From Nitrospiraceae bacterium (GTDB taxonomy: Bacteria > Nitrospirota > Thermodesulfovibrionia > Thermodesulfovibrionales > UBA1546), in assembly GCA_021373015.1 (NCBI GenBank), contig JAJFTJ010000005.1:225072-289071 (forward strand): 64,000 nucleotides of DNA. The letters are read 5' to 3'. The notes beneath the pieces are model-generated. The model was not told the origin of the DNA. It did no database searches and saw only the letters and a list, made by a program, of their open reading frames with translations. The number at the start of each line of letters is the position of its first letter. The stretch's first letter is position 1. Position numbers and translations under genes: made by a program. Positions 22,475 through 52,148 of the stretch are shown here, piece after piece.

Positions 22475-24085
22475 ATGAGAAAAATTGTTTTGCTTATAAT
22501 TTCTGTTGTTTTATTTCTATCAGTAGCTGCTGAAGCTGCTGAGATACGCGTAGCAGTTCTGCCATTCCGTAATCTTATGCAAAAAGAGGATCTGAATTGG
22601 CTCTCGGAAGGTATTGCGTCCACTATTACTGCAAAGCTTGGAAATGTAAAAGGTCTTTCGCTGGTTGAAAGGTCGCAGTTGCAGGTTGCCATTAAAGAAC
22701 TTGGCTTGCAGCATGCAGGTGTAGTTGATGACAATACTGCTGTTAAGGCTGGTAAGATTCTTGGCGTTCAGGTTGTGGTTATAGGCGAGTTTCAGGTCGT
22801 AGGTGATCAGGTAAGAATCTCGGCAAGGTTTGTTGAAGTTCAGACAGCCAAGGTTGCAAGCACATCGGTAGTTACCGGATCTTTCCAGAATATATTTACA
22901 CTTCAGGATGACGTATCCTTCTCTCTTGCAAAATCTTTGAATGTCGATGTTCCTGAGGATGTAAAAAAAGATACTGTCAAGGCCACAACCACAAAAAATC
23001 TTACAGCCTATGAATATTATTCCAAGGGCAATGACGCTCAATGGAATCAAAAAGATATCGAAAAAGCCATAGATTATTATCTTAAGGCTATTAATATTGA
23101 TCCAAACTATGAGAATGCCTTATTTGAATTAGGTTACATATATAACGACCTCGGCGAATACAAAAAAGCAATAGAATACTACACAAGATCTAATGCGCTG
23201 AATCCCAAGGCAAAAGATACAGCCAACAATATAGGCCTTGCTTATTCAAGATTAGGTGATTATCCAAATGCAGAGAAATGGTACAAAAAATCACTTGAGC
23301 TTGAGCCTAATTATGATCTTGCTCTTAATGGTTTGGGACTTGTCATGTATAAACAAAAGAAACTTACTGAATCTGAATATTGGTATAAAAAGACTATCCA
23401 GGCTAATCCTAAATACCATCTTGCATACTACAATCTAGGCATATTGTATGAGGATCAAAAAAATTACGATTTAAGCATTTCTTATTATAAAAAAGCTCTA
23501 GAGGTGCAGCCGACTTATACAAATGCGATGATCAATCTTGGATTGGTTTTAGAGACCACAAGAAAAGACTTTGCAGGCGCTGAGACATGGTATAAAAGAG
23601 CGCTTGAAGTAGAGCCAAATAACCAATATGCATTTTACAATCTAGGATTCCTCTACAACAATAAAGAAAATGGAAATTACAATATTGATACTGCAATATA
23701 CTATTATCAGCAGGCTATTGTAGCTAATCCAAAATACGACCTTGCATATTTTTATCTCGGCAAGCTCTACACTGAGAAAAAAGAATATCCAAAGGCAATA
23801 AATTCATACGAAAAAGCTATGCAGCTCTACGATAAAGACCCTGCATATTCTAATAACCTAGGATGGGTTTATGAATTACAAAAGAATTATGTGATGTCTG
23901 AAAGATTTTACAGAAAGGCTACGGAAGTTGATTCCAGTTATGGTCTGGCATGGGAAAATTTGGGCTATTCACTTTACTTCCAGAAAAAAGACGATGATGC
24001 TGTAGCGGCATGGAAAAAAGCCGCGTCACTTAACAGAGCAGGCGCAAAAGACGCTTTAAAAAAATATTACAATATTATTTATTAA
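22475..24085 (+). CDS. Exported protein: N-terminal CsgG/FlgO (TolB-N-like) domain plus about 10 TPR repeats
   Basis: Signal peptide. IRVAVLPFRNL...LVERSQLQVAIKELGL...AVKAGKILGVQVVVIGEF, then repeated AxxxYxKALELxPNY TPR units. Confidence 0.7.
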   Translation: MRKIVLLIISVVLFLSVAAEAAEIRVAVLPFRNLMQKEDLNWLSEGIASTITAKLGNVKGLSLVERSQLQVAIKELGLQHAGVVDDNTAVKAGKILGVQVVVIGEFQVVGDQVRISARFVEVQTAKVASTSVVTGSFQNIFTLQDDVSFSLAKSLNVDVPEDVKKDTVKATTTKNLTAYEYYSKGNDAQWNQKDIEKAIDYYLKAINIDPNYENALFELGYIYNDLGEYKKAIEYYTRSNALNPKAKDTANNIGLAYSRLGDYPNAEKWYKKSLELEPNYDLALNGLGLVMYKQKKLTESEYWYKKTIQANPKYHLAYYNLGILYEDQKNYDLSISYYKKALEVQPTYTNAMINLGLVLETTRKDFAGAETWYKRALEVEPNNQYAFYNLGFLYNNKENGNYNIDTAIYYYQQAIVANPKYDLAYFYLGKLYTEKKEYPKAINSYEKAMQLYDKDPAYSNNLGWVYELQKNYVMSERFYRKATEVDSSYGLAWENLGYSLYFQKKDDDAVAAWKKAASLNRAGAKDALKKYYNIIY

Positions 24086-24117
24086 TTAACGGATTATCTG
24101 CAACAAGTGAAATTTAA

Positions 24118-24151
24118 CGGGAATTCGAAGGCTATGCCGCTTGAATTCCCG
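24118..24151 (+). terminator. Candidate hairpin after the TPR gene
   Basis: CGGGAATTC (24118-24126), 16-nt loop, GAATTCCCG (24143-24151). No T-tract. Confidence 0.25.
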
Positions 24152-24183
24152 CAGCCTTATCTTAAAAATAATGAGAGGTTAGA

Positions 24184-25374: not shown

Positions 25375-25410
25375 TTTTTAAGATAAGGGTCAAATTAAGA
25401 AGGTTTAATA

Positions 25411-25863
25411 ATGCTTGTGCAGATGACAGTCGAAGGGTTATTGTTTGATCCAAGAAGCAATATGTATATTCTGCTTCTTAAGGACGCAAGCGGAGCATCA
25501 ACCTTGCCGATCTGGATAGGAAAACCAGAAGCAGATTCAATTGCGCTTGCTCTAGGCCGTGTTGTAACAACAAGACCTTTAACGCATGACCTTATTAAAA
25601 GCCTTATGCAGACAATGGGCATGAGAGTTACAAGGATTGTTGTTAGTGAAGTTCTCGATAATACTTACTATGCGTTAATCTATTTTCATGACGGAATAAC
25701 CGAAAATTTCCTGGACTCAAGACCAAGCGATGCAATAGCAATCGCTCTAAGGATGAATGCTCCAATTTATGTTGAAGAAAATATAATCGAGAACAAAAGC
25801 ACAGATGAACTCGAGGAGTGGCTTAAAAATCTCAAACCTGAAGACTTCGGCAATGTGATGTAG
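25411..25863 (+). CDS. Bifunctional nuclease (BFN/DUF151) domain protein
   Basis: LPIWIGKPEADSIALAL...RPLTHDL...DSRPSDAIAIALR. Confidence 0.8.
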   Translation: MLVQMTVEGLLFDPRSNMYILLLKDASGASTLPIWIGKPEADSIALALGRVVTTRPLTHDLIKSLMQTMGMRVTRIVVSEVLDNTYYALIYFHDGITENFLDSRPSDAIAIALRMNAPIYVEENIIENKSTDELEEWLKNLKPEDFGNVM

Positions 25864-25885
25864 CTTTGTCATCGACAAAGAGTAA

Positions 25886-26626: not shown

Positions 26627-26666
26627 ACTTTTTATAAAAATAGTATTTCAATAAACCTTATGCTTA

Positions 26667-29495: not shown

Positions 29496-29517
29496 TTTTA
29501 TTCAAAATATCATAAAG

Positions 29518-29527
29518 GTATCCTTTT
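29518..29527. repeat. Left copy of 10-bp direct repeat GTATCCTTTT
   Basis: Read directly. An identical 10-mer lies at 35248-35257 at the other end of the block separating addA from addB. Confidence 0.5.
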
Positions 29528-29578
29528 AGCAATCTTATCCTTTTTCTTCTTTCCAAGTTTTTTGATATAATCGGGAAT

Positions 29579-30226
29579 ATGAAAAAACAGGGTGGCATCA
29601 AACAACCATATACATTCACTGGAAGAGAATATGATGCTGAGACTGGAATGTATTATTATCGTGCAAGGTATTATGATCCGAATAGCGGGAGATTTATCTC
29701 AAAGGATCCGATTGGTTTTAAAGGTGGGGATGTGAATTTATATAGATATGTCGGAAATAATCCCATAAATATTATTGATCCGTTTGGATTACACGAAGTG
29801 CATTTTATACCAATTTATCATACTCTTAAACCTACATACGATCATTTGGTAATAACCTATGACGACAAAGGTATCCCAGTAAATATAAGCTCTGGAAGCA
29901 TCAAGCCAGATCCAAAGCAAGATAATTGCAAAAAAGGATGTCCGACTATTGAAAGCAGATCATATGATTTTGTACGAGATGATTTTCCAAAAACACTGAA
30001 GCGTGCAGATCAAACAAGGTATCCGGCGTTGTTTATTGGTACAGTACCAACCACTGCGTCAAATCCAAACAATAATAATACGCGTAGTGCTAAAGGTGTT
30101 TGGATTCATAAGGGCTACAAAGATAGGACATGTGCAGAAGGGTGCTTAACGATCGACCCAACTGATTGGGAGAAATTTATGAAGAACTTCCCAAAGGGTT
30201 CGACCGGAAAAGTCATAGTTTGGTAA
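29579..30226 (+). CDS. Orphan Rhs-core C-terminal fragment fused to a variable toxin-like domain
   Basis: YTFTGREYDAETGMYYYRARYYDPNSGRFISKDPIGFKGGDVNLYRYVGNNPINIIDPFGL is the end of the RHS-repeat-associated core, about 70 aa only with no Rhs shell upstream. A 145-aa unrelated tail follows. Confidence 0.75.
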   Translation: MKKQGGIKQPYTFTGREYDAETGMYYYRARYYDPNSGRFISKDPIGFKGGDVNLYRYVGNNPINIIDPFGLHEVHFIPIYHTLKPTYDHLVITYDDKGIPVNISSGSIKPDPKQDNCKKGCPTIESRSYDFVRDDFPKTLKRADQTRYPALFIGTVPTTASNPNNNNTRSAKGVWIHKGYKDRTCAEGCLTIDPTDWEKFMKNFPKGSTGKVIVW

Positions 30227-30242
30227 TTAAAAAGGAGCTAAA

Positions 30243-30848
30243 ATGTTTTACAAGAAAGAAACAATGACAATTTTGAGCATTTTGGTAATTACAATATTAT
30301 TTGGTACTCTGGCCAATACAGAACAAAAAAATAAACTGCCAAGGTCTTATGGACCGCTTTATTTAGGCATGTCTGTAAAAGAGTTTAAAAAAATTTTTGT
30401 TGGTGTAGATCTCGCTAGATGTGTACATTGTGCAGAGGAAGAACTTGAAGCAGACTTATGCATTACAAAAGAATCTCGGAGTACTAATCTATGTGATAAT
30501 GTGAATCCCATCAAATTCAAGGATGCATATGTAACATTTCAACCAAACGAATTGAAAACTAACAAAATAACATGCTTCTTTTATAAAGGAGTGCTATACG
30601 ACATTGTGATGGGAAATATTGCAGCTAAAGTAGGCTCCGTTAAAGAGCATTATATAAAAGATTTAGGCAAACCAACTGCTGATGCTGTGTGGGATACAGG
30701 ATTATCACAGTTGCGATGGGAGCACGCTTCAACTATGTTAAGTGTCACTTTTGCTACTGAAAAAACCTCGAAAAAAAATGATGATGATTTTATTGAAATT
30801 AGATATACAGATTTAAAAATCCTAAAGCAGCTTCCACAGGGGAAATAG
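30243..30848 (+). CDS. Exported hypothetical protein, candidate cognate immunity protein
   Basis: Starts 16 nt after the toxin ORF. N-terminal signal/anchor TILSILVITILFGTLA. No family recognised; the call rests on position. Confidence 0.4.
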   Translation: MFYKKETMTILSILVITILFGTLANTEQKNKLPRSYGPLYLGMSVKEFKKIFVGVDLARCVHCAEEELEADLCITKESRSTNLCDNVNPIKFKDAYVTFQPNELKTNKITCFFYKGVLYDIVMGNIAAKVGSVKEHYIKDLGKPTADAVWDTGLSQLRWEHASTMLSVTFATEKTSKKNDDDFIEIRYTDLKILKQLPQGK

Positions 30849-30955
30849 ACCAGAAAAGGGGATGAATCAGAAAATAGAACCGTCTCGTTTTCTGTTCTGG
30901 AAGCAAAAAATATCATTCTGTAAAAAAGTTTTTTCAATCAGAAGAATAAAACAGT

Positions 30956-30967
30956 GTGAAAATTCAC
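30956..30967. promoter_or_regulatory. 12-bp palindrome GTGAAAATTCAC abutting a -35-like TTGATT; candidate Crp-family site
   Basis: Perfect inverted half-sites GTGAA/TTCAC. It is the reverse complement of the 12-mer at 41287-41298. Followed by TTGATT (30968-30973), 18 nt, TATATT (30992-30997). Confidence 0.45.
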
Positions 30968-31006
30968 TTGATTTGCTTCTTAGTCATCCAGTATATTTCA
31001 TGGGTA

Positions 31007-31513
31007 ATGAAAACACTTGCAATTATAATATTTTTTATTTTTACTGCATCAACAGCCTCTGCCCTCAGTGTAAATGACAATGCGCCTTTATTTTCTTTAA
31101 GAGACAGCGATGGAAAGTTTTTCTATCTGAGCAATTATATCGGTTCAAATAGAAACAGCTCTTCAAAAGGCGTTATCATAAACTTTTTTGCATCAACCTG
31201 TATTCCATGCAAAAAAGAACTTCCAATTCTTAACTCTATTGTTGATGAATTCAGAAAAAAAGGCATAGAGATTGTGATAATCGGATACAAAGAAGATTTT
31301 AATAAAATTGGAGAGATGCTTAATGCATTAAGTGTTGATAAGCCTGTAATTCTCAGCGATATATACGGCAAAGTTGGAGAGAAGTACGGAGTAATAGGAC
31401 TGCCGCTGACACTAATAATCAATAAAGACGGAAAAGTAAAAGAAATTATCTGGGGAGAAAGAGCTAATATAGACAAAATATTAAGAGAGAAAACAGGACG
31501 ACTGCTGAAATGA
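31007..31513 (+). CDS. Exported thioredoxin-fold (TlpA/redoxin-like) protein
   Basis: Signal peptide MKTLAIIIFFIFTASTASA. FFASTCIPCKKELP CxxC motif. The track GTG start at 30956 lies inside the palindrome, so ATG 31007 is preferred. Confidence 0.8.
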   Translation: MKTLAIIIFFIFTASTASALSVNDNAPLFSLRDSDGKFFYLSNYIGSNRNSSSKGVIINFFASTCIPCKKELPILNSIVDEFRKKGIEIVIIGYKEDFNKIGEMLNALSVDKPVILSDIYGKVGEKYGVIGLPLTLIINKDGKVKEIIWGERANIDKILREKTGRLLK

Positions 31514-32142
31514 AAAGAACCTTGGTAATTCTATTTGTGATTTTTTTAATAACACCGCTTTTTGCCGCTGAAAAATCTTCTAATCTCAAGGATCAAAAAG
31601 CAAAAACTCAGAACACAAAAGCACCAGAGAATATAAAGCTTGTAGAAAACTATGTTGCGATTTTTGACCTTGAGACGCAGGGCGTGGACAAAAAGATCTC
31701 CCGTCCATTAACAGATAGTATAATTTTGGAGATAGTTAAGACTGGGAAATATGAAGTCATAGACAGAAGCAACATGAACAAGGTGCTCAGTGAGCAGAAA
31801 TTTCAGCTGTCAGGATGTGTATCAGGGCAATGCGTGGTAGAGGCAGGCCAGCTTCTTGGGGTTGGGAAGATAATAGTTGGTTCTGTGGGCATAGTAGGCA
31901 GTACTTATTATCTTTCGCTTTCACTGATAAATGTAACCACAGGAAAGATAGAAACATCCTCAGAAGACAAATGCAAGTGCGCAATAGATGAGCTTATAGA
32001 ATCAAGCAAAAGACTTGCAAAGAAACTGATGGGAGAAAAAATTGATGCAGTAACAACAACAAAACCAGAGATAAAACCAGAAACAACTCCAGTGACAAAA
32101 CCAACAACAGGAACTACAACAAGACCAACTCGTTTTCGCTGA
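31510..32142 (+). CDS. Exported CsgG/FlgO-like domain protein with Thr/Pro-rich tail
   Basis: ATGA overlap with the upstream gene. YVAIFDLETQ...YEVIDRSNMNKVLSEQKFQLSGCVSGQC..AGQLLGVGKIIVGSV. Tail TTTKPEIKPETTPVTKPTTGTTTRPT. Confidence 0.6.
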   Translation: MKRTLVILFVIFLITPLFAAEKSSNLKDQKAKTQNTKAPENIKLVENYVAIFDLETQGVDKKISRPLTDSIILEIVKTGKYEVIDRSNMNKVLSEQKFQLSGCVSGQCVVEAGQLLGVGKIIVGSVGIVGSTYYLSLSLINVTTGKIETSSEDKCKCAIDELIESSKRLAKKLMGEKIDAVTTTKPEIKPETTPVTKPTTGTTTRPTRFR

Positions 32143-39234: not shown

Positions 39235-39332
39235 CTTTTGTATTTTATACCTTTCCTTTTATTTTGCAAGCGATTTCTTGCGCTTGTTTTCATCCATGGA
39301 ATAATGTAAAATCTTGTTTTGAATTAACACGC

Positions 39333-40571: not shown

Positions 40572-40576
40572 TTAAA

Positions 40577-41272
40577 ATGGAGAAAGATAACAAAAAAGAA
40601 TTAATACAGGGATTTCTTAAAGAGATGCCTATTTTTAAAAGCCTGTCCGAACCTCATATAAACAAACTTGCAAAAGACTTTGTTGTCCTTCAGGCAAAAA
40701 AGGGAGAAACAGTATTCTACCAGTCAGATCAAAGCACTGATCTCTATATTGTTCTTGATGGCTCTGTCAGGGCTTCATTGTTGAATCAGGAAGGCCAAGA
40801 GTTAATCCTCGCCGCATTCAAGAAGGGTGATTTTTTCGGGGAGATGAGTCTTCTTGACGGGATGCCCAGATCTGCAACAATAATAGCTGTTGAAGATCTG
40901 ATATTAGCAATGCTGAAGAGAGAGCTATTTCTTTCTGCTGTTAAAAATGATCCCATGATAGCAATAGACCTTCTTTCTTCTGTTGTGCAGAGACTTAGAA
41001 CTGCAAATGGAATGATTGAATCTCTTGCATTTCTGGATGTCAGCCAAAGACTGATTAAGCTGTTTCTGCAGATTGCTTCAACTGGATCAGAAAAAAATAA
41101 CGAGGGATTTCTGCGTATTGGAAAAATAACGCATCGGGAACTTGCTGCGAGAACAGGCGCATCTAGAGAAGCAATATCAAAAGTCATAAAAGTGCTTATT
41201 TTCAGAAAGATTCTTAAAGAAGATGAGCGGCATTTTTTCATATCTCCCAAGGCTGAACAGGAGGTATTTTAA
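40577..41272 (+). CDS. Crp/Fnr-family transcription regulator (cNMP-binding type, no Cys)
   Basis: FFGEMSLLDGMPRSATIIA (Glu and Arg-Ser of the cAMP pocket). HTH ITHRELAARTGASREAISKVIKVL with an Arg-Glu pair. No cysteines, so not an Fe-S FNR. Confidence 0.9.
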   Translation: MEKDNKKELIQGFLKEMPIFKSLSEPHINKLAKDFVVLQAKKGETVFYQSDQSTDLYIVLDGSVRASLLNQEGQELILAAFKKGDFFGEMSLLDGMPRSATIIAVEDLILAMLKRELFLSAVKNDPMIAIDLLSSVVQRLRTANGMIESLAFLDVSQRLIKLFLQIASTGSEKNNEGFLRIGKITHRELAARTGASREAISKVIKVLIFRKILKEDERHFFISPKAEQEVF

Positions 41273-41403: not shown

Positions 41404-42162
41404 ATGAGAATTAAAATTTTAGCCATGACTTTCTTAGTGTCCTTTTTCCTGATGTATGGAGCAGCTTCTGCTATTGGTCTTGAGGCTGCAATAGGAGTTT
41501 GGAATCAGGATCCTTCAGGAGACATTAGTTACAAAGGGGAATCATTAAGCGTGGGTAATGACCTTAAGTATGATTCTGAGGTCAAGTTTTTCGGCAGGGC
41601 AAAGATAGAACTGCCTCTTATATTTCCTAATATTTATTTGATGGCAACACCGATGAAGTTCGAAGGAAGCGGACAAAAAAATGTAAACTTTCAATTCGGC
41701 GACAAGACATTTACAGGAAGCGTGCCTTTCAACTCAAAAATTCAACTTGACCATTATGACATATGTTTCTATTACAATCTTCCTTTTCTTAAGACCCTTT
41801 CTCTCGGCAAGCTCAATGCAGAGGTTGGATTGAATGCAAGAATTTTTGATTTTAAGGCTGAAATTGATCAGCCGTCAACAGGGATTAAAGAAACAAAGAA
41901 TATGACGCTTCCTGTTCCTATGGTTTATGTAGGAGCGCAGTTTAAGCCGATAAAGCTCTTTTCATTAGAGGCAGAGGCAAGAGGGATTGCATTTAGCGGT
42001 AACCATTATTATGACTTAGTAGCAAGGCTCAAGGTTAAACCTATAGGTCCGTTATTTATAGCAGGCGGATACAGATATGAGGATGTAAAGATTGACGAAA
42101 AAAGTGTAAAAGCGTCTCTGAAATTCCAGGGTCCGTTTGTTGAAACAGGGCTTGAGTTTTAG
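41404..42162 (+). CDS. Outer-membrane beta-barrel protein
   Basis: Signal peptide ...MYGAASA. Alternating strands. C-terminal ...FVETGLEF with terminal Phe. Confidence 0.65.
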   Translation: MRIKILAMTFLVSFFLMYGAASAIGLEAAIGVWNQDPSGDISYKGESLSVGNDLKYDSEVKFFGRAKIELPLIFPNIYLMATPMKFEGSGQKNVNFQFGDKTFTGSVPFNSKIQLDHYDICFYYNLPFLKTLSLGKLNAEVGLNARIFDFKAEIDQPSTGIKETKNMTLPVPMVYVGAQFKPIKLFSLEAEARGIAFSGNHYYDLVARLKVKPIGPLFIAGGYRYEDVKIDEKSVKASLKFQGPFVETGLEF

Positions 42163-42186
42163 CATAGAATAAAATAGAGGAGGAAT

Positions 42187-43356
42187 ATGTCTAAGAAAGC
42201 CATGAGATTAACTTTACTGTTTCTTGCAGTATCTTTATTCTTGCCTGTTGTTTCAAGTGCTCAGGTAAAATGCGTTAATTCTGAAGGAGAATCAGTGATT
42301 ATAAACAACGACATACCTTCAGCGAAGACAGAGGCAACAGCAAGGGCAAAATGGTCTGCTATTGAGCAAACAGTCGGAGTAGAAATAAAGGCACAAAGTG
42401 TTGTTCAAAATTTTGCACTGGTTGACGATGCAATCAGCAAGAATATAAAAGGAACAGTGCAAAGTTACAAGGTTCTGCTTGAGGACAACAGAAAAGATAC
42501 TTTCTGGGTGAAAATAAATGCCTGTATTGAGCCAACAAAAGCAAAAGATGCCTTGATGACCATGGCGCTTAACAATTCAGTTGCAGTATACATTCCTGCA
42601 AGAAAACCAAGGGTTATAAGCGAACATGATACCAAGAAAAGCAGTTACATACATACTAAAGATGAATATGACGAGACAAATTTTTTCTCTGAATCATTGA
42701 TTAACAAACTGCTTCAACAGGGCTATCAGGTTGCAGATATAGCGCCTACTCATGCAATAGAGGCTGCTGCTATTGACAGCGCCCTTAAGTCAGGTAACTA
42801 CATGACGTTAAGATCGCTGATGTACAAATTTCTGTCAAATGTTCTGATGATAGGCAAGATCGACTATACAATCTCGACCAAAAAAGGCGAAGATGTTGGG
42901 TATGGCATTAACATGCCTTTTTACGCTGTAACAACCAGGCTTACTTACAGGCTTATAACAAGAGATCAATCAGGAAGAAATTCTATCATTCATGCAGATA
43001 CTGGCGAAGCAAAAGGGCTTGCACTGAGTGTTGGAGACGCAACTGAAAAGGCGATTAAAGAACTCTCTGAAAAAATTACACCCACAATCCTTGATGTGCT
43101 TTCAAAGCATGTTGCCGGAGCTTCAAAAAAGATCAGCCTTAGCGTAAAAGGAGTCAGCGATATAAACACAAGCTTCAGGGTGAAAGAGATATTGCAGAAT
43201 ACAGCATGGGTCACCTCTGTGGAGGAGAAATCACTTGGAGAATTTCTTGTTGGTTATCCTGAAAATATTGTATATCTGATTAATAGTCTTTCGCAGAAAA
43301 ATTTTAAGATTTCTAATTTCACAGGCTACTCAGCAACTATGGAATACAGACAATAG
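42187..43356 (+). CDS. Exported protein with LPP20/FlgT-N-like N-terminal domain
   Basis: Signal peptide ...PVVSSA. SEGESVI...AKTEATARAKWSAIEQTVGVEIKAQSVV pattern. A middle alpha/beta region and C-terminal beta domain loosely recall FlgT. Confidence 0.45.
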   Translation: MSKKAMRLTLLFLAVSLFLPVVSSAQVKCVNSEGESVIINNDIPSAKTEATARAKWSAIEQTVGVEIKAQSVVQNFALVDDAISKNIKGTVQSYKVLLEDNRKDTFWVKINACIEPTKAKDALMTMALNNSVAVYIPARKPRVISEHDTKKSSYIHTKDEYDETNFFSESLINKLLQQGYQVADIAPTHAIEAAAIDSALKSGNYMTLRSLMYKFLSNVLMIGKIDYTISTKKGEDVGYGINMPFYAVTTRLTYRLITRDQSGRNSIIHADTGEAKGLALSVGDATEKAIKELSEKITPTILDVLSKHVAGASKKISLSVKGVSDINTSFRVKEILQNTAWVTSVEEKSLGEFLVGYPENIVYLINSLSQKNFKISNFTGYSATMEYRQ

Positions 43357-43378
43357 CTATGAATGGGAGGGGATTTTA

Positions 43379-44353
43379 ATGAAAAGAGTTTTTCTTTTTT
43401 TCTTAGTAATTGCGCTGGCATTAAGCTTTGCCATAACAACTACATCTGAAGCAGCCAAGAAAAAAGTTGCAGTACTTGATTTCGAATACGGCACGATAAC
43501 TGACAGATGGTGGCCGGGCTCATGGAATATAGGCAAGGGAATCGCTGATATGATGGTTACACAACTCGTAAAGGATGGCACATATTCTGTAATTGAGAGA
43601 AAAAAACTTGATGCGATTATTAGCGAACAGAAGCTTGGAGCAAGCGGACTTGTTGATGCTTCCACGGCTGCACAAATTGGAAAGATACTCGGTGTTCAGT
43701 ATGTAATTATAGGTAGCATTACTCAGTTCAGCATTGATACATCAGAAATAGGGCTTGGCGGTATTGGTGCAAAGTTTGGGTTTGGCGGAGCCGGCGTATC
43801 AAATACCGTTGCTAAGGTTTATATTGACGCAAGGATGATCGATACCACTACTGCTGAGATCATCGGCGTTGCTGAAGGCAAGGCCGAAGACAGTAAGAAA
43901 GGCCTGAAGCTTGGCGGTGGAAATTACAAAGGGTTCGGGGGTCTTTCATTTGCGAGCAAAGGATTTAATGAAACAATACTTGGACAGGCAACAAGACAAT
44001 GCGTTGCTGATGTAGTTAAACAGCTTACAGGCAAGGCAGCAACTTCAAGTTCAGACGGCGAAGATGCTCCTAAGACAGTGAAAGTAAAGATTGCTGACAT
44101 TGATGCAGGATCAAAAACAGTAATACTCGACGGCGGGAGCAGCACTGGGATATCAAAAGGCCAGACGCTGTATGTCGTGAAAGTAAAGAAAGAGATAAAG
44201 AGCCCTACAACAGGCGAAGTTATTAAACGAATTACAGAGACAGTAGCAGAATTGAATGTTACTGAGGTTGATAAAACCTCTGCAACTGCAACTATTGTTA
44301 AAGGTGACCCCCGAAGTTTCAAAGCAGGGGATGATGTAAGTTCAACAAAATAA
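43379..44353 (+). CDS. CsgG-family protein with additional C-terminal beta-rich domain
   Basis: KKVAVLDFEYG...IADMMVTQLVKDGTYSVIERKKLDAIISEQKL...AAQIGKILGVQYVIIGSITQF...AKVYIDARMIDTTTAEIIGVAEG. Signal peptide present but no lipobox Cys. Confidence 0.8.
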   Translation: MKRVFLFFLVIALALSFAITTTSEAAKKKVAVLDFEYGTITDRWWPGSWNIGKGIADMMVTQLVKDGTYSVIERKKLDAIISEQKLGASGLVDASTAAQIGKILGVQYVIIGSITQFSIDTSEIGLGGIGAKFGFGGAGVSNTVAKVYIDARMIDTTTAEIIGVAEGKAEDSKKGLKLGGGNYKGFGGLSFASKGFNETILGQATRQCVADVVKQLTGKAATSSSDGEDAPKTVKVKIADIDAGSKTVILDGGSSTGISKGQTLYVVKVKKEIKSPTTGEVIKRITETVAELNVTEVDKTSATATIVKGDPRSFKAGDDVSSTK

Positions 44354-44391
44354 CGATGCTTAAATTTAGTTTGAGATATAAGGAGGAAGAC

Positions 44392-45600
44392 ATGAGAAAT
44401 TCTTTAAGACTTTTAGCTGTAGTTTTTATTCTCTTATTTGCCTATGCATGTGCAAAACCGGTTGCAAAATGCACAGACCCTGAAGACAATCCATCTCACC
44501 ACTATTTGGTAGGAATGGAGAATCTTGAGAAAGGAAAGATCGATATTGCAAATGAGAAATTCGAAAGGTCGATTTTTTGCGATGCCAAGTTTTCTCCTGC
44601 ATATGGAGGGCTTGCAATTGTAACTGCTGAAAAGGCAAAGGCGCAGATTGATCTTAAGTTCAAAGCAGTAGAATCTGAGCGCGCAAAAGAATATCTAAAA
44701 AAGGCTGATAAATCAGCAGAATCGCAGGAAGACAGTTTTGATTACAATCTGGCTGTAATAAGAGTCAATACAATTCTTAAAGGTAAAGACTGGCTTAACA
44801 AAGCAGAAGATGCATTTAATGACGCTAGAAAACTCAAGGTTGAGGAAAAGAAGCTCATTTATTATCAGGGCATAGAAGCATCATCTTATTTTATAGGGAT
44901 TGCTTACCTTGAGGCTTCAGAATTCCAGAAAGCACGCGACAGGTTTTCAGAAGTGCTCAACATGAAGAGAGAAGGCAAGTGGAACGAAAAAGCTGACAAA
45001 GCATGGAAGCGCGTTGACAAAATTGTCAGAGCAATGTCAGGGATAACAGTAGGCGACGTCGGGAAAAAGATTGCTGTTAAAGAATCTATAACAAGAGGAG
45101 ATTTAACAGCTCTCTTAATTGATGAACTTAAACTTGATAAACTTTTTGCAGGACGCATCCCTTCCAAGTCAAAAGTTGACAAGATGAAAGCAGAATTTAC
45201 GCCTGCTGACATTATGAATTATCAGTTCAAAGATGAGATACTTACTGTCATGAAATGGAAGGTAAGGGGACTCGAGCCTAAATTTGACACGACAACCCAG
45301 GCATACTTATTTAAACCAGCAGAACCTGTATTAAGACAGGAGATGGCCCTTATTCTCGAAGATGTGCTTATTAAGCTGACTGGGGATGAGAAGATAGCAA
45401 CAGCATATTTTGGTCATGAAAAATCGCCATTTCCAGATGTAAAGCCGACAGCTCCATGGTATAACGCAGTAATGAACATGACATCAAGAGGGATAATGGA
45501 ACCTGAGATTTCAGGAGAGTTCAGAGTTGACTCTTTTGTTGACGGAGCAGAAGCGCTTCTGGCTATCAGAGTATTAAAACAAAAGATGAACATATATTAA
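44392..45600 (+). CDS. Lipoprotein with TPR-like N-terminal half and SLH-like C-terminal repeats
   Basis: AGGAGG RBS. Lipobox LLFAYAC. C-terminal FPDVKPTAPWYNAVMNMTSRGIM resembles an S-layer-homology motif (tentative). Confidence 0.55.
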   Translation: MRNSLRLLAVVFILLFAYACAKPVAKCTDPEDNPSHHYLVGMENLEKGKIDIANEKFERSIFCDAKFSPAYGGLAIVTAEKAKAQIDLKFKAVESERAKEYLKKADKSAESQEDSFDYNLAVIRVNTILKGKDWLNKAEDAFNDARKLKVEEKKLIYYQGIEASSYFIGIAYLEASEFQKARDRFSEVLNMKREGKWNEKADKAWKRVDKIVRAMSGITVGDVGKKIAVKESITRGDLTALLIDELKLDKLFAGRIPSKSKVDKMKAEFTPADIMNYQFKDEILTVMKWKVRGLEPKFDTTTQAYLFKPAEPVLRQEMALILEDVLIKLTGDEKIATAYFGHEKSPFPDVKPTAPWYNAVMNMTSRGIMEPEISGEFRVDSFVDGAEALLAIRVLKQKMNIY

Positions 45601-45624
45601 TCAAAAACAACAAAGGAGGTAAAA

Positions 45625-46590
45625 ATGAAAAAAATACTTGTAGTTGCTTTAATGTTAGTTTTTGCAATTGTAGCTATTGCTATTGCGCAGAATCAGCCAG
45701 TTCCACCGCCATCTGAACCTAATGTATCTGTACCTGCTGTGCCAAGCAGCAGCTCTAAGATTGATGACAGATTCCAGAAAGCAAACGAATGGCTTAATCA
45801 GAGCAAACTCACAGTTACAGAAAATCAGACAGATGCATTTGTGAACGGGTACATACTGGTTGTTGCTGAAGGACTTCCTCAACCAGATGCAACCTCAATT
45901 GGCAAGAAGAGACTTACCGCAGAAAGAGCTGCGGAGGTGCTTGCCTACAGAAAACTCGCCGAGTTTTTGGATGGAGTGGCAGTTATCGGAGACACATTAG
46001 TAAAAGATGCTGAACTCAAATATGATGTTGTAAGGGCAGCAGTTGCAGGTTTTGTAAAAGGCGCTCAGGTTGTTCATAAGGAATATAACAAAGAAGAAGA
46101 AACAGCGCTTGTTATAATGAAAGTCGGGTTAAATGGCCCTGGAAGTTTTGCAGACGCAATGTATGCCAAAATACTCCAGCCTGATGTAAAAAAAGATCTC
46201 CAGCCCACACCAATCCCCCAGTACAAACATAAACCTGTGCCATTGGACAGCGTGTATGACAGTCTTATTATCGATGCAACTAAACAGAATTTTAGACCTG
46301 CATTGATAAACAGACTCTTCACAACAAAAGGAGAGGTCATATATGACCCTTCAAAGATCAGCCAGAAGGTATTGGTTGAGCAGGGATGCGGTGAATACAC
46401 AAACAGTGTTGACAAGGCAAAAGCAGCGCTTGAACAAAGAGGAGCAAAAAATCCTTTGATCATTCAAGCATCCGGTTCAGTAAATCCATCTGACCTTCAG
46501 GTTTCTGATGATGACGCAGTCTCGATATTCTCTGCCAATCAGAAATCAAGATTTCTGTCTGCTGCAAAAGTAGCTTTTGTATTAAAATAA
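45625..46590 (+). CDS. Exported LPP20/FlgP-like domain protein
   Basis: Signal peptide ...AIAIA. VVAEGLPQPDATSIGKKRLTAERAAEVLAYRKLAEFLDGVAVIGDTLVKD...VAGFVKGAQVV matches the LPP20-family pattern as I recall it. Confidence 0.6.
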   Translation: MKKILVVALMLVFAIVAIAIAQNQPVPPPSEPNVSVPAVPSSSSKIDDRFQKANEWLNQSKLTVTENQTDAFVNGYILVVAEGLPQPDATSIGKKRLTAERAAEVLAYRKLAEFLDGVAVIGDTLVKDAELKYDVVRAAVAGFVKGAQVVHKEYNKEEETALVIMKVGLNGPGSFADAMYAKILQPDVKKDLQPTPIPQYKHKPVPLDSVYDSLIIDATKQNFRPALINRLFTTKGEVIYDPSKISQKVLVEQGCGEYTNSVDKAKAALEQRGAKNPLIIQASGSVNPSDLQVSDDDAVSIFSANQKSRFLSAAKVAFVLK

Positions 46591-46598
46591 TTTTCATA

Positions 46599-46634
46599 TT
46601 GACTGCCTTGTTTTTTAAAAAACAAGGCAGTCAA
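46599..46634. repeat. 36-nt perfect palindrome / hairpin between two array genes
   Basis: TTGACTGCCTTGTTTTTT|AAAAAACAAGGCAGTCAA read directly. Begins 9 nt after the 45625 ORF stop and ends 7 nt before CAGGAG, the RBS of ATG 46656. Confidence 0.85.
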
Positions 46635-46655
46635 TTAAAACAGGAGCATTTAAAA

Positions 46656-47693
46656 ATGAATATGAGAATTTCAATATATGCACTTTTTATTTCTTTTTTA
46701 TTAGTATCATGTGCTCCGCCATCTGTAAAAACAACAATGCTTACACCTGCAAAATTTCACGATGCGTCAATGATCAAGGAAATAGCAATACTACCATTTG
46801 ACGGACAAGGCGGCGCTGAATTTGCCGCTGAACTTGAAGGCATGTTTGCCGGGATTAATCTGAACGACAAACAATATTTCACTATAGTTGATAGGAATAA
46901 AATTGATAAGATTATCAGCGAGCTTAAATTTACGCAGAGCGCTTTAGTCGATGAGAAAACTGCAGTAAAGGTCGGCAAACTTGTAGGCGCAAAGGGGATT
47001 TACAGCGGGGTTATTACATCAAGTAAAGTAAGCGATAATTACTTTACAGAAAGCCGTTCCCGCTGTGCATATACAGCTACACAATATGATAAAAAAGGCA
47101 AGCCTTATCAGGTCTGCGCACAATACGAAAACTACAATGTCAGATGCTCAAAACGAACTGCTATATTCTCAGCAACTCCTAAACTTATTGAGATTGAAAC
47201 AGGAAGGGTTGTTTATGCCAACAACATATCAGGCTCTGAAAACTCATCAGCATGTGAAGACACAGGCAAACCGCTTATTGACAAAACACTCCTGCTTAAA
47301 AATGCAAGAGACCGCGCTAAGTCAATGCTCAGAACTGATGTCGCGCCGTATTATGTAACAGTTCAGATAAAGCTTCTTGATTCAACATCAGGCATAACAT
47401 CAAAAGAAGCCGAGAACAAACTTGAACAGGGGATTGATTTTGCAAAAAATAATAGACTTGACAGAGCATGTGAAATATGGGGAGAGGGGCGCATACTAGC
47501 TCCAAATTCATCTTCCATACTCTACAACCTTGGCATTTGCGCTGAAGTGACAGGTTCTCCAGAACAGGCCTTAGACTTGTATAAAAAAGCTGATAGATTG
47601 ATGAATCAGCCTGATGAAAATATAACAGCAGCGCTTGCACGAGTCAATAAGGCGATACAAGACAAGGACAAACTGAAAAAACAGACTCAATAA
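46656..47693 (+). CDS. Lipoprotein: CsgG/FlgO-like domain, Cys-rich middle region, C-terminal TPR
   Basis: Lipobox FLLVSC. KEIAILPFDGQ...FTIVDRNKIDKIISELKF...AVKVGKLVGAKGIYSGVI. ATG 46656 is preferred because the longer track ORF would read through the palindrome. Confidence 0.65.
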   Translation: MNMRISIYALFISFLLVSCAPPSVKTTMLTPAKFHDASMIKEIAILPFDGQGGAEFAAELEGMFAGINLNDKQYFTIVDRNKIDKIISELKFTQSALVDEKTAVKVGKLVGAKGIYSGVITSSKVSDNYFTESRSRCAYTATQYDKKGKPYQVCAQYENYNVRCSKRTAIFSATPKLIEIETGRVVYANNISGSENSSACEDTGKPLIDKTLLLKNARDRAKSMLRTDVAPYYVTVQIKLLDSTSGITSKEAENKLEQGIDFAKNNRLDRACEIWGEGRILAPNSSSILYNLGICAEVTGSPEQALDLYKKADRLMNQPDENITAALARVNKAIQDKDKLKKQTQ

Positions 47694-47728
47694 AAGCAAT
47701 AGAAAGGATATCTGTTATATAAAATAAT

Positions 47729-49414
47729 ATGAAAAAATCTGTTTTTTTTATGCGCAGCTTATTATTTATATTTGCAGTTTCATTAATCTTGCTTCCTCAA
47801 CAGTCTTATACAAAAACTTTAATACTTGATGGCGAGCTCGAGAGCAGGATAAAAACAACGCAGCAGATCAGCTTTGATGTGTCCAGTGAAGTAAAATCAC
47901 TGACATTCAGATTTGCCCTGCCTGCTGTTTTTTCAAACAAGGCAACCTCGCAAAGCTTAGAAAGACTTGATCTGAAATTTTCTATTGAACCATCATCTGT
48001 TATTGATGATGTTGACAGGTTTGGCAATAGGTTTAAAAAAGTCAGATGGGACAATCTAAGACAAAACGTTAATATTACTATCTCGTTCGATTCTCGTATA
48101 AAATCCGAACTCAAATATATGGAAAGCAAGTCTCAGTTCCCGCTTGCCAATATTTCTGGTTCTGAATCACTTTTTCTTAAATCTACAGGGTTGGTGCAGA
48201 GCGAAGACCCTGAGATTGCAGAGCTTTCAAGAAGACTCACAGCAAATGCCAGAACAGAGCAGGATGCGGTTAATGCAATATTGAACTGGGTTTCTGATAA
48301 TGTCAAATACACCTACAATCCTCCTCAATACGATGCTGTTTATACTTACAGAAGCGGTAAAGGCAACTGCCAGAACTTTGCACATCTTTCAATGGCTCTT
48401 CTCAGAGCCGCAGGAATCCCTTCTAGAATTGTCGGAGGTATAAGTCTCAAAAGACAATGGAAGGTTCCTGTAGAGAACGGTTATCTTGTCCAGGACATGG
48501 GGCAGGGCGGACATGCATGGATGGAAATATATTTTCCTGATCTAGGATGGCTTTCTTATGATCCTCAGCAGTCAAGACAATTTACATCAACACGGCACAT
48601 AAAACAGACACATGGATTAGATTCAAAAGACATTAATGATTCATGGTCAGCAGCTCCTTATCTTCCAAAGTACAGCGAAAGCATAGAGGCAGTTTTTAAT
48701 ACCGACGATATATCGATAAAACTCGCTGGAGCTAAAGAAGCTCCAAAGTCATATATAATGAGCAATAATCTTTCAGCAAAAGTTTCCGCAGAAAAACCTG
48801 AGCTTCCTATTAAGCCGCCTTTTCCTCCAATAATCATAAAGCCTGAACCGCCAGTAAAACCTCCTCCTGTTAAAAAAGGTGATGTAGCATTCGGCAACAC
48901 TGATTTTCCTGCGCTAGTTGATGCCTATCAGGCTATAGGCAACGAAGGAACGAGAATCCTTGATAAGGAGACCGCTGAATATGTCACATCCAAGTATATT
49001 TATGCCCAAGCATTCACAGTTGCAAATACAATGTCACTAAAAAATATTGCTCTTGCACTCAGAAAATTCGGCGGCGACGGCTCAATTTACATCGATGTTG
49101 TCAAGGATGATAACGGCAAGCCGGGCTTTACAGGCGAGAGATCCCTCCCGATTTTTCTGAACAATATAAAATTCAGGCCGGGCTATTATTGGGTTGATTT
49201 TGCATTTACTAAAGGCAAGGAGCCTTATCCAATACTGAAGCAAGGGAAATACTGGATAATTTTAAGACACTCTGGAGAGGCTATTGTTAATTGGTTCTAT
49301 ATACCGGGGAATCCTTATGGCGACAGTGATGACACTCGTTCAACTGTTAAAGGATATAAATGGGAGGATTTATTAAATTATGATTTTGTATTCAAAGTTA
49401 CAGGCAGAATTTGA
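47729..49414 (+). CDS. Exported transglutaminase-core (Cys-His-Asp) protein with Pro-rich linker and unassigned C-terminal domain
   Basis: GKGNCQNFAHLSMALLRAAGIPSRIVGG...GGHAWMEIYFPDLGWLSYDP. Linker PELPIKPPFPPIIIKPEPPVKPPPV. Confidence 0.85.
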   Translation: MKKSVFFMRSLLFIFAVSLILLPQQSYTKTLILDGELESRIKTTQQISFDVSSEVKSLTFRFALPAVFSNKATSQSLERLDLKFSIEPSSVIDDVDRFGNRFKKVRWDNLRQNVNITISFDSRIKSELKYMESKSQFPLANISGSESLFLKSTGLVQSEDPEIAELSRRLTANARTEQDAVNAILNWVSDNVKYTYNPPQYDAVYTYRSGKGNCQNFAHLSMALLRAAGIPSRIVGGISLKRQWKVPVENGYLVQDMGQGGHAWMEIYFPDLGWLSYDPQQSRQFTSTRHIKQTHGLDSKDINDSWSAAPYLPKYSESIEAVFNTDDISIKLAGAKEAPKSYIMSNNLSAKVSAEKPELPIKPPFPPIIIKPEPPVKPPPVKKGDVAFGNTDFPALVDAYQAIGNEGTRILDKETAEYVTSKYIYAQAFTVANTMSLKNIALALRKFGGDGSIYIDVVKDDNGKPGFTGERSLPIFLNNIKFRPGYYWVDFAFTKGKEPYPILKQGKYWIILRHSGEAIVNWFYIPGNPYGDSDDTRSTVKGYKWEDLLNYDFVFKVTGRI

Positions 49415-49851
49415 TGAAAAAGCTGTGTTTGTTTTTTATTTTCTTTAATATTATTATCTTTTCAACAAATATAATTGCTGCAGACAAAGATGTTGTTCTT
49501 CCAAGAGAGCATATCGCCAAACTAAAGAGAATAGCAGGATTTTTTGCAGCAGAACTTAAAAATAAAAATATAAAAACTGTTACAGTGGGAGACTTCACTG
49601 ATTTTAATAAAAAACCCTCTGCCAGAGGGAAGACAATGGCAAGGGAATTTAAAAAACAATTAGAAAAAATCGGAAAGAAAAATTTTAAGGTAATTGATAA
49701 AAATCCAGAAGCTCTTATAACAGGGATACTGCTTCCATATCAGGACAAGAGCAAGTGGCAGTTGGATTTAAAGGCTGTTTATGCGAATAAAGAACAGGTT
49801 ATTACAGCATATACCGCCATCTTTAAAAAACCAAAACAAGTTGCAAAATGA
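49414..49851 (+). CDS. Small exported protein (weak FlgO/TolB-N-like resemblance)
   Basis: TGATG stop/start overlap with the upstream gene. Signal peptide ...STNIIA. KTVTVGDFTDF...FKVIDKNPEALITGIL. Confidence 0.45.
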   Translation: MKKLCLFFIFFNIIIFSTNIIAADKDVVLPREHIAKLKRIAGFFAAELKNKNIKTVTVGDFTDFNKKPSARGKTMAREFKKQLEKIGKKNFKVIDKNPEALITGILLPYQDKSKWQLDLKAVYANKEQVITAYTAIFKKPKQVAK

Positions 49852-52148
49852 AAATCAGGGGGTGCATCTTGAAGAAACTATTTTTAGTATTTTCAGTGTC
49901 AATGGTCATATTCTCTTGTGCCCCGTCACAAGAAATAAAAAAAGACAGCCTGGAAACTGTTTCAATTGCAGATGCAGAGCTTCCGAAAATGGTTGCAGTC
50001 CTTCCCTTTCAGAATCAGACACAGGAAATCGGTCTGGGGAATAAAGTCAGAAAATCTTTTTATAATCACTTTACTTCAAAACAATATAGAGATGTAAAGC
50101 CCATGATAGTTGATGAAAAAGTTGTTTATCTGGAAAAATCTACAGGTAAATCAATACTGGAAATAAAACCGCCTGATATATGTCAGCCCATAGGTTGTGA
50201 CGGTCTTGTTTACGGCAACGTGACTGATTTTAAAAAAGTCTTTGTTGGAATATATTCACAGCTTTCTATAGAGACTGAGGTCTGGATGATAAATGTAAAA
50301 ACCGGCAAGGAAATATTTCGCATAAAAGACAGCGTCACTTATCACGAAGGCAGTGTCCCTATGTCGCCTCTTGGCATAATAATGAGCGCTGTTACAGCTG
50401 CCATGAATCTAAGAGAGATCCAACAGGTACGGCTGGTAAATGAACTCGCCTATAAACTCAACGAAAAAGTCCCTTCACCAAAAAGCTTAAGCAAAGAAGA
50501 TCGTCCTGTAATAAAAGAAGTTCTCACAAATGCCAAAGAAAGCCCTTTTGGAAAAGGGAAAATAATAAGAGTAGGGCTGGAAGGAGAACCCGGAGCTGTA
50601 GCTATGTTTGATATCGGCAATTTTAAGAAAAATATTTTAATGAAAGAAACAAAGCCCGGAATTTATATTGGAGAATATCCGGTAATGCCTGGAGACAATA
50701 CTGCTGACATGCCGCTTGTAGCATATCTCAACAGACCAGGCGGACTTGAGAGCCAGTGGATCGACATAGCCGGGCTTGTAACTCTTGATACAACTCCTCC
50801 GCCTTCTGTTAAAAGTGCAAGGGCAAAAGGATTCCATGACAGAATTGAAATCACATGGGAACCTGTTAAAAACACTCCTGACCTAAAAGGATACGCTGTT
50901 CTAAGAAGCGAACAGCCGTTAAGCGGATATGTTGAGCTTGCAAAGATCGAGCTGAATACATTTGAAGATAAAAATGCAAAGCCTGATACTGTTTATTATT
51001 ACAGAATAATAGCATCTGACCAGACTGGCAATGAATCAGAAGTTCACGATCCGGTTAAGGCAATGATTATTTCCAAAGAACCTGTGGTTATTTCAGGTGA
51101 AATCAAGAAAGATACCGTGCTTTCCGGAATTTACATTGTTAAGGGGAATGTGTCAGTGCCCAAAGGATTGATGCTTACAATTGAACCTGATACAAGAATA
51201 CTATTTGCTGAAAATTCATCGTTAAAATCACAGGGGAAAATCATAATTAACGGAAAAGACTCACCTGTTGAGTTTATATCATCGGGAGAAAAAAGATGGA
51301 AAGGAGTTTTTATTGAGGCTGGAAACGTTTTACTGAATGGTCTCCGCATAAAAAATGCTGTAACTGCAATTTCACTTCAAAACACGGAAGGGGTGATTGA
51401 AAATTCTGTGATTACTGAAAGCGATACAGGTATCTATATATCCGGTACTCCGTCCGTAGCTGTTAAAGGTTCGGTGATTTCAGGGAATATGGTTGGCGTG
51501 AAATTACAAAAGACAGATGCAAAACTATCGCAGAATAATATATTCCAGAATAAAGAAGGGATTTCTGTCAGCGGTTTTTCTGGTGAGATAAAAGAAAACA
51601 ACATTTTTGACAACGATATAAATATTTCTTCCAAGCAAGAAATAAAAATTGCTGCAAATTATCTTGGTTCTATAAATATTGATGAAATGAAAACCAATGG
51701 GATAATAATTTCAAAAGCCTATGAAAATAAATTTCCCGAAGGCAAGATTGCGGATGCCGTATCGAATCCTTATTCCAAATTGACGCAGGAAGAACGACAG
51801 AAAAAATCAGCTGAGATTTTGATAGAAGCCGGGAATTACTTCAGGCAGAGAAATTACGGCAAGGCAGTTACATATTTTGAAGAAGCTTTAAAGTCTAATC
51901 CAACTGCTGAGACATATTATTATCTTGCTGTCTGCCATCAGGAAATGAAGGAAGATGACAAGGCTCTTAAATACTTAAAAGAAGGCGCTGAAAAATTTCC
52001 AAAAGATTCAATTTTACATAAGTCGCTTGGCATGATGTATTACCAGAAAGGCAATGAGGCTGAAGCGAAAAAAATATTCGAAGAAGTTCTGAGGCTTAAC
52101 CCGGAAGACAGACAGGTCAAGTTCCTTCTTGAGAGAATAGGCAAATAG
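49848..52148 (+). CDS. Multidomain lipoprotein: DUF799-like, FN3, parallel beta-helix repeats, TPR
   Basis: ATGA overlap. Lipobox VIFSC. KMVAVLPFQNQT...CDGLVYGNVTDF...VWMINVKTGKEIF (DUF799-like). IEITWEPV...YYYRIIASD (FN3). Repeated xGIxISGxxxxxIxxNxI units. C-terminal TPR. Confidence 0.75.
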   Translation: MKIRGCILKKLFLVFSVSMVIFSCAPSQEIKKDSLETVSIADAELPKMVAVLPFQNQTQEIGLGNKVRKSFYNHFTSKQYRDVKPMIVDEKVVYLEKSTGKSILEIKPPDICQPIGCDGLVYGNVTDFKKVFVGIYSQLSIETEVWMINVKTGKEIFRIKDSVTYHEGSVPMSPLGIIMSAVTAAMNLREIQQVRLVNELAYKLNEKVPSPKSLSKEDRPVIKEVLTNAKESPFGKGKIIRVGLEGEPGAVAMFDIGNFKKNILMKETKPGIYIGEYPVMPGDNTADMPLVAYLNRPGGLESQWIDIAGLVTLDTTPPPSVKSARAKGFHDRIEITWEPVKNTPDLKGYAVLRSEQPLSGYVELAKIELNTFEDKNAKPDTVYYYRIIASDQTGNESEVHDPVKAMIISKEPVVISGEIKKDTVLSGIYIVKGNVSVPKGLMLTIEPDTRILFAENSSLKSQGKIIINGKDSPVEFISSGEKRWKGVFIEAGNVLLNGLRIKNAVTAISLQNTEGVIENSVITESDTGIYISGTPSVAVKGSVISGNMVGVKLQKTDAKLSQNNIFQNKEGISVSGFSGEIKENNIFDNDINISSKQEIKIAANYLGSINIDEMKTNGIIISKAYENKFPEGKIADAVSNPYSKLTQEERQKKSAEILIEAGNYFRQRNYGKAVTYFEEALKSNPTAETYYYLAVCHQEMKEDDKALKYLKEGAEKFPKDSILHKSLGMMYYQKGNEAEAKKIFEEVLRLNPEDRQVKFLLERIGK

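Follow-up and report, generated by a model that had tools for sequence, protein, structure and literature searches.

Seven exported proteins encoded within a 64,000-nucleotide stretch of DNA from a Nitrospiraceae bacterium (NCBI GenBank GCA_021373015.1, contig JAJFTJ010000005.1, positions 225,072 to 289,071; hereafter the window) carry a TolB-N-like domain. We refer to them by the window positions at which their open reading frames (ORFs) start: 22475, 31510, 42187, 43379, 46656, 49411, and 49848. Homology, or at least a common TolB-N-like fold, links the seven segments, and five of them (42187, 43379, 46656, 49411, and 49848) lie in an operon, located at 41404-52148 on the forward strand, that at least seven further Nitrospirota contigs retain. 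The seven domains are ancient paralogues, and our analysis makes it reasonably probable that the five operon copies form in the cell envelope an oligomeric scaffold, associated with the outer membrane, that surrounds a CsgG-like channel. An earlier note on this DNA, read from the sequence alone, had proposed an expansion of one periplasmic CsgG/FlgO-type module with four clear and two weaker copies. All six ORFs are present on the forward strand and encode a signal peptide at the N-terminus, and all six are real members of the group; the count was one short, the seventh copy being the middle domain of 42187. The ORF listed at 46599 in fact begins with the ATG at 46656, and its product then has a lipoprotein signal peptide (LLVSC).

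Seven copies of a TolB-N-like domain

Sequence searches placed five of the seven proteins above a Pfam cut-off. Four exceeded that of CsgG (PF03783, 20.8 bits): 22475, whose domain spans 22538..22879 (residues ~22-135; Pfam match over residues 20-105, 30.5 bits); 31510 (31639..32034, residues 44-175; 29.0 bits); 43379 (43445..44044, residues 23-222; 140.6 bits); and 46656 (46767..47270; 35.9 bits). The fifth, 49848, passed the cut-off of the GNA1162-like family (DUF799, PF05643; 29.2 against 25.9 bits) and, like 42187 and 49411, did not reach that of CsgG. The N-domains of the four CsgG-positive proteins share 29-43% identity in pairwise BLASTP comparisons (33-53 bits) and join in a single alignment carrying the motif given in the earlier note. 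A hidden Markov model (HMM) built from them found no extra copy in the six-frame translation of the window; this profile is too shallow for diverged copies, and its best non-member, 49848, reached an E-value of only 0.14. Pfam LpoB exceeded its cut-off in 43379 (24.3 bits) and 46656 (26.3 bits), in both cases beneath a stronger CsgG match, and the NCBIfam LpoB equivalog (TIGR02722) scored 19.6-24.9 bits in 31510, 43379, and 46656, far under its cut-off of 110.55. Pfam FlgO (PF17680, cut-off 22.6 bits) gave sub-cut-off matches to 22475 (15.7 bits) and 43379 (18.3 bits). Pfam detected no β-propeller family, as found in TolB, in any of the seven proteins, and the resemblance to TolB is at the level of the fold only.

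The fold was tested directly with AlphaFold 2 models and Foldseek searches of the PDB for 31510 and 42187, and through Pfam and profile links for the other five. The model of 31510 has a predicted local distance difference test (pLDDT) score above 90 in most blocks of residues 45-175. Its structural neighbors were the LpoB C-domain (4Q6L), the TolB N-domain, PelC, GNA1162 (4HRV; E-value 1e-5, template modeling (TM) score 0.65 on the target), CsgG, and FlgT. The model of 42187, built from an alignment of 90 homologues (pLDDT 82.6), matched Vibrio FlgT best (3W1E, E-value 1.5e-8, 316 aligned columns); the TM-scores of this match are just 0.23-0.25, low values that differently oriented domains would lead one to expect. 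Further matches were CsgG (4UV2), GNA1162 (4HRV), LptE, and Lpp20 (5OK8). The seventh copy lies at 42568..43032 (residues ~128-282 of the protein encoded at 42187-43356), where the predicted element order, β-α-β-α-α-β-β-β with one inserted hairpin, agrees with that of 31510. Both models directly display the core of the fold (β-α-β-α-β-β-β), and the comparison of predicted structures that the earlier note had proposed points to a TolB-N-like fold in each, with matches to CsgG, GNA1162, and FlgT. From its model, we read 42187 as a FlgT-like protein in which an LPP20/FlgP-like N-domain (42268-42531) and a small C-terminal α/β domain would flank the TolB-N-like middle. Pfam FlgT_N matched this protein at 24.7 bits, under its cut-off of 28.8, and NCBIfam LipL46 (NF033164) aligned weakly (residues 30-305 to model positions 41-311 of 413; E-value 2e-7, 29.8 bits).

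The TolB-N-like fold is common to CsgG, FlgO, FlgT-M, LpoB, PelC, and GNA1162. A Pfam clan unites CsgG with the TolB N-domain (PMC3173608), and GNA1162 has been described as TolB-like (bioRxiv 10.1101/2021.05.19.444899). The GNA1162 structure 4HRV was a neighbor of both of our models, and its closeness to 31510 places the GNA1162-type domain of 49848 in the structural neighborhood of the CsgG-type copies. Within the 49848-52148 product, this domain occupies 49983..50408 (residues 46-187) and matched 4HRV itself at an E-value of 0.017. Along with the Pfam score, a lipobox at Cys24 and the neighboring CsgG homologue 43379 mark 49848 as GNA1162-like, in keeping with its earlier description as a diverged version of the module. 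Public databases already contain this domain family, the fold, and fusions of the domain with TPR and other modules.

The copy in 49411-49851 is a minimal FlgO-like domain (49513..49836, residues ~35-142). The protein matched nothing in Pfam or NCBIfam, and a word-indexed search recovered only two close homologues. When a 49411 profile was run with HMMER against all 1.84 billion representative proteins (E-values at Z = 1.84e9), it returned 28 small proteins of the family and, in longer proteins, 12 weaker matches; 10 of 10 such matches checked by Pfam were CsgG- and FlgO-positive. Against those CsgG/FlgO proteins, a deeper family profile (30 sequences) gave E-values of 8e-12 to 1e-5. The alignments fall into two collinear blocks that jump ~30 target residues, indicating that 49411 is a FlgO-like domain minus a helix segment. 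Because the (E/D)R..E(Q/L)K..GK(I/L)LG signature sits on the missing helix, the weak appearance of this copy (ORF 49414 in the earlier note) is explained: it is a true member, although one with neither the motif helix nor a Pfam match. Orthologues of 49411 occur in four related contigs (L002-L005), and in four of four their stop-to-stop frame overlaps that of the transglutaminase-like gene.

By sequence comparison, the copies are old paralogues, each with its own orthologues in other Nitrospirota. Identity to these orthologues is 74-85% for 22475 (85% for the fragment P0006), about 50-62% for 31510, 53-76% for 42187, 64-67% for 43379, 58-60% for 46656, 46-50% for 49411, and 68% for 49848, whereas the window paralogues share at most 45% among themselves. 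Orthologues at 46-85% against paralogues at no more than 45% indicate that the duplications are older than the split of these lineages. The identity figures rule out recent tandem duplication, and the term expansion, in the sense of a local or recent event, has to be given up; 22475 and 31510, moreover, lie in unrelated neighborhoods.

A conserved operon with a constant core and variable fusions

The operon runs in the order 41404, 42187, 43379, 44356, 45625, 46656, 47729, 49411, and 49848, all on one strand, with gaps of 2-76 bp and two 4-bp overlaps. Signal peptides are encoded by all 15 ORFs from 41404 to 59113. Scans for promoters and terminators across 40.5-60 kb gave results near the shuffled expectation and were therefore left unused. 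Of the four genes that lack the TolB-N-like domain, the first (41404..42162) encodes a 252-residue protein with a signal peptide and the ending ...GLEF, a putative outer-membrane β-barrel judging by its sequence; Pfam gave no match, and orthologues occur in L002 and L005. The exported product of 44356 (44356..45600), possibly a lipoprotein, is helical and TPR-like in its N-terminal part, carries at its C-terminus an SLH domain (Pfam, 49.2 bits) presumed to be a cell-wall anchor, and is 69-78% identical in all related loci. The exported protein 45625 (45625..46590) combines a FlgP/LPP20-like N-terminal half with a conserved C-terminal domain in which a Pfam scan found nothing. A profile of seven orthologues matched solved FlgP chains in the PDB, namely 9HMF_C from C. 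jejuni (E-value 8.5e-12) and those of Vibrio (8Z5N, 1e-7; 9YDS, 2e-4). Finally, 47729 (47729..49414) encodes an exported transglutaminase-like protein of the Cys-protease fold (Pfam Transglut_core, 101.8 bits).

The domain-bearing proteins differ in what accompanies the shared module. In 43379 (43379-44353), the CsgG match covers model positions 5-203 of 210, whereas the other three CsgG-positive proteins reach only the first ~100-160 positions. Two Gly-rich hairpin segments of 43379 would correspond to the CsgG transmembrane hairpins, and its alignment with E. coli CsgG from the PDB (E-value 0.007) spans the TM1 hairpin. A FlgT_C-like β domain follows (residues 246-310, 44114-44308; 26.7 bits against a cut-off of 27). 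The signal peptides of 43379 and its orthologues in L002-L005 are of the signal peptidase I (SPase-I) type (...SEA|AKKK) and lack a lipobox; a more distant homologue in L009 is a lipoprotein. The lipoprotein 46656 (46656-47693; lipobox Cys19) continues after its domain with a Cys-containing linker (six Cys in the mature protein), in which Pfam found nothing, and a TPR-like C-terminus. In 49848, an FN3-like region (residues ~316-398), a NosD-type β-helix (460-616; Pfam NosD 39.3 bits), and TPR repeats (~640-760; TPR_2 64.3 bits) follow; the FN3 assignment has as its sole basis a pairwise alignment to a Pfam-positive fn3 domain in a relative. The earlier suggestion that each copy carries a different C-terminal addition stands as regards the different partners, with two of them less firmly assigned than it implied: the TPR matches of 46656 are under the Pfam cut-offs, and Pfam detected no fn3 in residues 201-431 of 49848.

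Comparison with seven related Nitrospirota contigs (L002-L006, L009, and L010) showed that the core 42187-43379-44356-45625 is kept in every one of them. Orthologues of 47729 and 49411 occur in L002-L005. Toward the end of the operon the gene content changes: 46656 is present in L003 and L004, missing from L002, and replaced in L005 by a lipoprotein with weak TolB_N and peptidoglycan-binding matches and TPR repeats, and 49848 has an orthologue only in L005. The slot of 49848 holds a second FlgT-like gene in L003, where the contig then ends, and in L004 a second FlgT-like gene, a TPR + CsgG_N protein (49.4 bits), and a CsgG/FlgO-like + fn3 protein. The operon core is thus constant across relatives, while the domain-bearing accessory fusions (TPR, FN3, β-helix, and peptidoglycan-binding) vary. 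That the same slots are filled by other fusions of the same fold supports the view of a modular family with different partner domains, which is the best-supported part of the earlier interpretation. As a separate observation, the slot after the 45625 orthologue in the more distant relatives L010 (14396-16530) and L006 (14867-16344) contains a 133-residue and a 359-residue coiled-coil protein, the latter with a weak OmpA-like C-terminus. A YajG-like lipoprotein of 200 residues is found in L010 and a related one of 227 residues in L009. None of these coiled-coil and YajG-like slot proteins has a counterpart in the window.

The operon is followed on the same strand by an exported TPR-CHAT protein (55074-58232; Pfam CHAT 194.5 bits), whose signal peptide makes it presumably a periplasmic caspase-like protease, and by an exported LPP20-like + DUF4384 protein (58253-59113; Pfam DUF4384 90.9 bits). 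The same succession of operon, Peptidase_C14/CHAT genes, and an LPP20-like/DUF4384 gene is seen in L006, L009, and L010, where, as in the window, Crp and Mla genes flank the operon. We also noted a second recurring module, FlgP/LPP20/FlgT_N-like, in three exported proteins of the window, at 42268-42531 (42187), 45625-46134 (45625), and 58331-58603 (58253). The copies in 42187 and 58253 are linked by HMM and BLAST, with N-domains of DUF4384 proteins matching that of 42187 at 1e-9 to 1e-11.

The two copies outside the operon raise the question of whether the seven have anything functional in common, or are independent proteins of a very common periplasmic fold that came to lie within 30 kb by chance. 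In 22475-24085, an SPase-I signal peptide and the domain are followed by ~9 TPR repeats (TPR_1 175.9 bits), and the gene is flanked by those for an RNase III and an aminotransferase. In 31510-32142, named 'CsgG/HfaB family protein' by NCBI, the domain stands alone with a disordered Thr/Pro/Lys tail (residues ~180-210), and hundreds of short stand-alone homologues of this type exist. The gene lies beside one for a TlpA-like thioredoxin. Elsewhere, the neighborhoods of 22475-type and 31510-type proteins were uninformative, and the 31510-type context is not conserved. We infer that 22475 and 31510 share the fold and sit in separate, unrelated (housekeeping) contexts with no link to the other copies, and for these two alone chance adjacency may well be the whole explanation. 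For the set of seven it is unlikely, given that five copies form a tight same-strand run with overlapping genes, that the core order is retained in seven contigs, and that the variable slots of relatives again hold proteins of the same fold. Apart from this question, the start of 31510 overlaps the stop of the thioredoxin gene (TlpA/AhpC-like) by 4 bp (30956-32142), a pairing not seen beside 31510-type homologues elsewhere, and the protein has two close Cys pairs (103/108 and 155/157).

Known systems and a possible envelope scaffold

The closest described system is the non-curli CsgG/GNA1162 lipoprotein cluster. That cluster, composed of a CsgG homologue and two lipoproteins, one of them GNA1162-like, is widespread (A. 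baumannii, Neisseria), and an A. baumannii mutant of it loses poly-N-acetylglucosamine (PNAG) and pili (bioRxiv 10.1101/2021.05.19.444899). The operon resembles it in pairing a CsgG homologue (43379) with a GNA1162-like lipoprotein (49848), two of the three published genes, and differs in being far larger, with added FlgT/FlgP-like, SLH, and transglutaminase-like proteins. Compared with CsgG/HfaB proteins themselves, 43379 spans the whole model including the hairpin regions, and four window proteins exceed the family cut-off; 43379 is, however, not a lipoprotein, and three of the four CsgG-positive proteins carry only the N-terminal half of the model, joined to other domains. We rejected a curli system, as there is no Csg partner among the operon proteins and the window ORFs scanned and the NCBIfam CsgG equivalog scored 16.4 bits against a cut-off of 505.

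A broader version of this idea is that the operon secretes an extracellular polymer, either a curli-like amyloid through the CsgG channel or a Pel-like exopolysaccharide by means of a PelC-like ring, a TPR protein, and a β-barrel. The full CsgG domain of 43379, the PelC and PelBC entries among the structural neighbors of the module, the NosD-type β-helix and TPR repeats of 49848, and the possibly barrel-like 41404 are consistent with such a role, as is the phenotype of the A. baumannii mutant. Polymer export nevertheless seems quite improbable to us: Pfam detected none of the CsgA/B/E/F families in the operon proteins or the window ORFs scanned, and neither curlin repeats, glycosyltransferases, nor polymerases were found in operon or window. 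The PgaA equivalog, like that of CsgG, scored far under its cut-off, and no candidate substrate emerged.

The operon also recalls the flagellar FlgO/FlgP/FlgT proteins of Vibrio and Campylobacter, in that 42187 would have a FlgT-like layout, 45625 is FlgP-like, and 49411 and 46656 are FlgO-like. In Vibrio, FlgT (C26) and FlgO/FlgP (C58) form concentric rings that are lipid-anchored to the outer membrane (bioRxiv 10.64898/2025.12.02.691832). The operon could accordingly encode accessory structures of a Nitrospirota polar flagellum, such as an outer-membrane disk or H-ring of the kind built by Vibrio FlgO/FlgP/FlgT or the Campylobacter FlgP disk. The FlgT match of the 42187 model, the fit of 45625 to solved FlgP chains, and the link between the 49411 family and Pfam FlgO-positive proteins favor this explanation, and flagellar accessory genes can sit away from the core flagellar genes. 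We nonetheless hold it to be very unlikely. The 64-kb window contains no flagellar gene, nor do L006, L009, and L010 have one within 10 kb of the operon; the constant partners are a full CsgG protein, SLH, caspase/CHAT, and DUF4384 proteins, and Mla genes. The FlgT_N and FlgO scores in the window are below the cut-offs, and the LPP20-like and CsgG-like families include many non-flagellar members. Unlike in FlgT, the M and C domains here are found on a separate protein, 43379, which is itself a full CsgG.

Other likenesses are more distant. LpoB, the TolB N-domain, and PelC were the best structural neighbors of the 31510 model and are likewise periplasmic, outer-membrane-proximal α/β domains; the low equivalog score and the lack of a TolB β-propeller and of pel genes make them fold relatives, not orthologues. 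Leptospira LipL46 aligns along most of the length of 42187, but its score is far under the cut-off of 400 bits, and 42187 has an SPase-I signal peptide with no lipobox.

We return to the scaffold reading, in which the operon copies would behave like their solved relatives, as self-associating, outer-membrane-proximal ring or scaffold units. Solved proteins of this fold, from which the anchoring or oligomerization role suggested in the earlier note would follow, frequently form lipid-anchored rings beneath the outer membrane. Oligomers were among the structural matches (the PelC dodecamer and CsgG oligomer entries); CsgG is a 9-mer and PelC a 12-mer. As the only copy with a full CsgG domain and both Gly-rich hairpin segments, 43379 is the candidate for an oligomeric channel or central ring. 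Concentric layers in the periplasm, made up of the FlgT-, FlgP-, and FlgO-like proteins, would surround 43379; attachment to the outer membrane and the wall would come from 46656 and 49848, both lipoproteins, and from the SLH protein; and the variable fused domains might recruit partners or substrates. Several points weigh against this proposal. TolB-N and LpoB show the same fold as monomeric binding domains, and hence the fold alone does not imply rings. E. coli CsgG requires its lipobox to reach the outer membrane, and 43379 and its close orthologues have none. The membership of 49848 comes from fold-level transitivity, with no direct sequence significance to the other copies. An HMM-HMM comparison of the 49411 family with a 31510-type profile, run with hhalign, was not significant (4.7% probability), the link having come only through FlgO-type proteins. 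Lastly, no candidate for a secreted substrate was identified.

A more far-reaching idea, which we regard as tentative and doubtful, is that the run from 41404 to 59113 is an undescribed, non-flagellar envelope machine of Thermodesulfovibrionia/Nitrospirota. It would consist of a CsgG-like ring or channel with FlgT/FlgP/FlgO-like layers (building blocks shared with the flagellar H-ring and basal disk), an SLH tie to the wall, periplasmic CHAT/Peptidase_C14 and transglutaminase-like enzymes, and exchangeable, lineage-specific TolB-N-like adaptors. A literature search found nothing on the operon or on an association of CsgG, LPP20, DUF4384, and caspase proteins.

With these results, seven exported proteins, at least two of which carry the NCBI label 'hypothetical protein', gain a fold and a family assignment, and the orphan family of 49411 is identified as a stripped-down FlgO-like domain. 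FlgT-, FlgP-, and FlgO-like types next to a CsgG homologue, with no flagellar neighbors, are candidate non-flagellar relatives or ancestors of the flagellar rings. The operon adds context to the widespread and unexplained non-curli CsgG/GNA1162 clusters; the periplasmic CHAT/caspase proteins tied to it are likewise uncharacterized.

Neighboring genes and minor observations

Between the operon and the CHAT gene, the window encodes an exported DUF4140/DUF4139 protein (53408-55033), preceded by two small exported proteins (52225 and 52636) with no family assignment. The region immediately before the operon (39264-41272) encodes a Crp/Fnr-type regulator and a membrane protein with a putative cNMP-binding domain, recognized from its sequence. 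In L005, L006, L009, and L010, too, a Crp-type gene lies ahead of the operon, pointing to control by cyclic nucleotides.

Farther upstream, at 29579-30848, lie ORF 29579 and the next one, 30243, for which Pfam scans gave no match. In ORF 29579, an Rhs/YD-repeat core-end motif (...YYYRARYYDPNSGRFISKDP...) precedes a short C-terminal region. ORF 29579 resembles an orphan Rhs toxin tip, and 30243 may encode its immunity protein.

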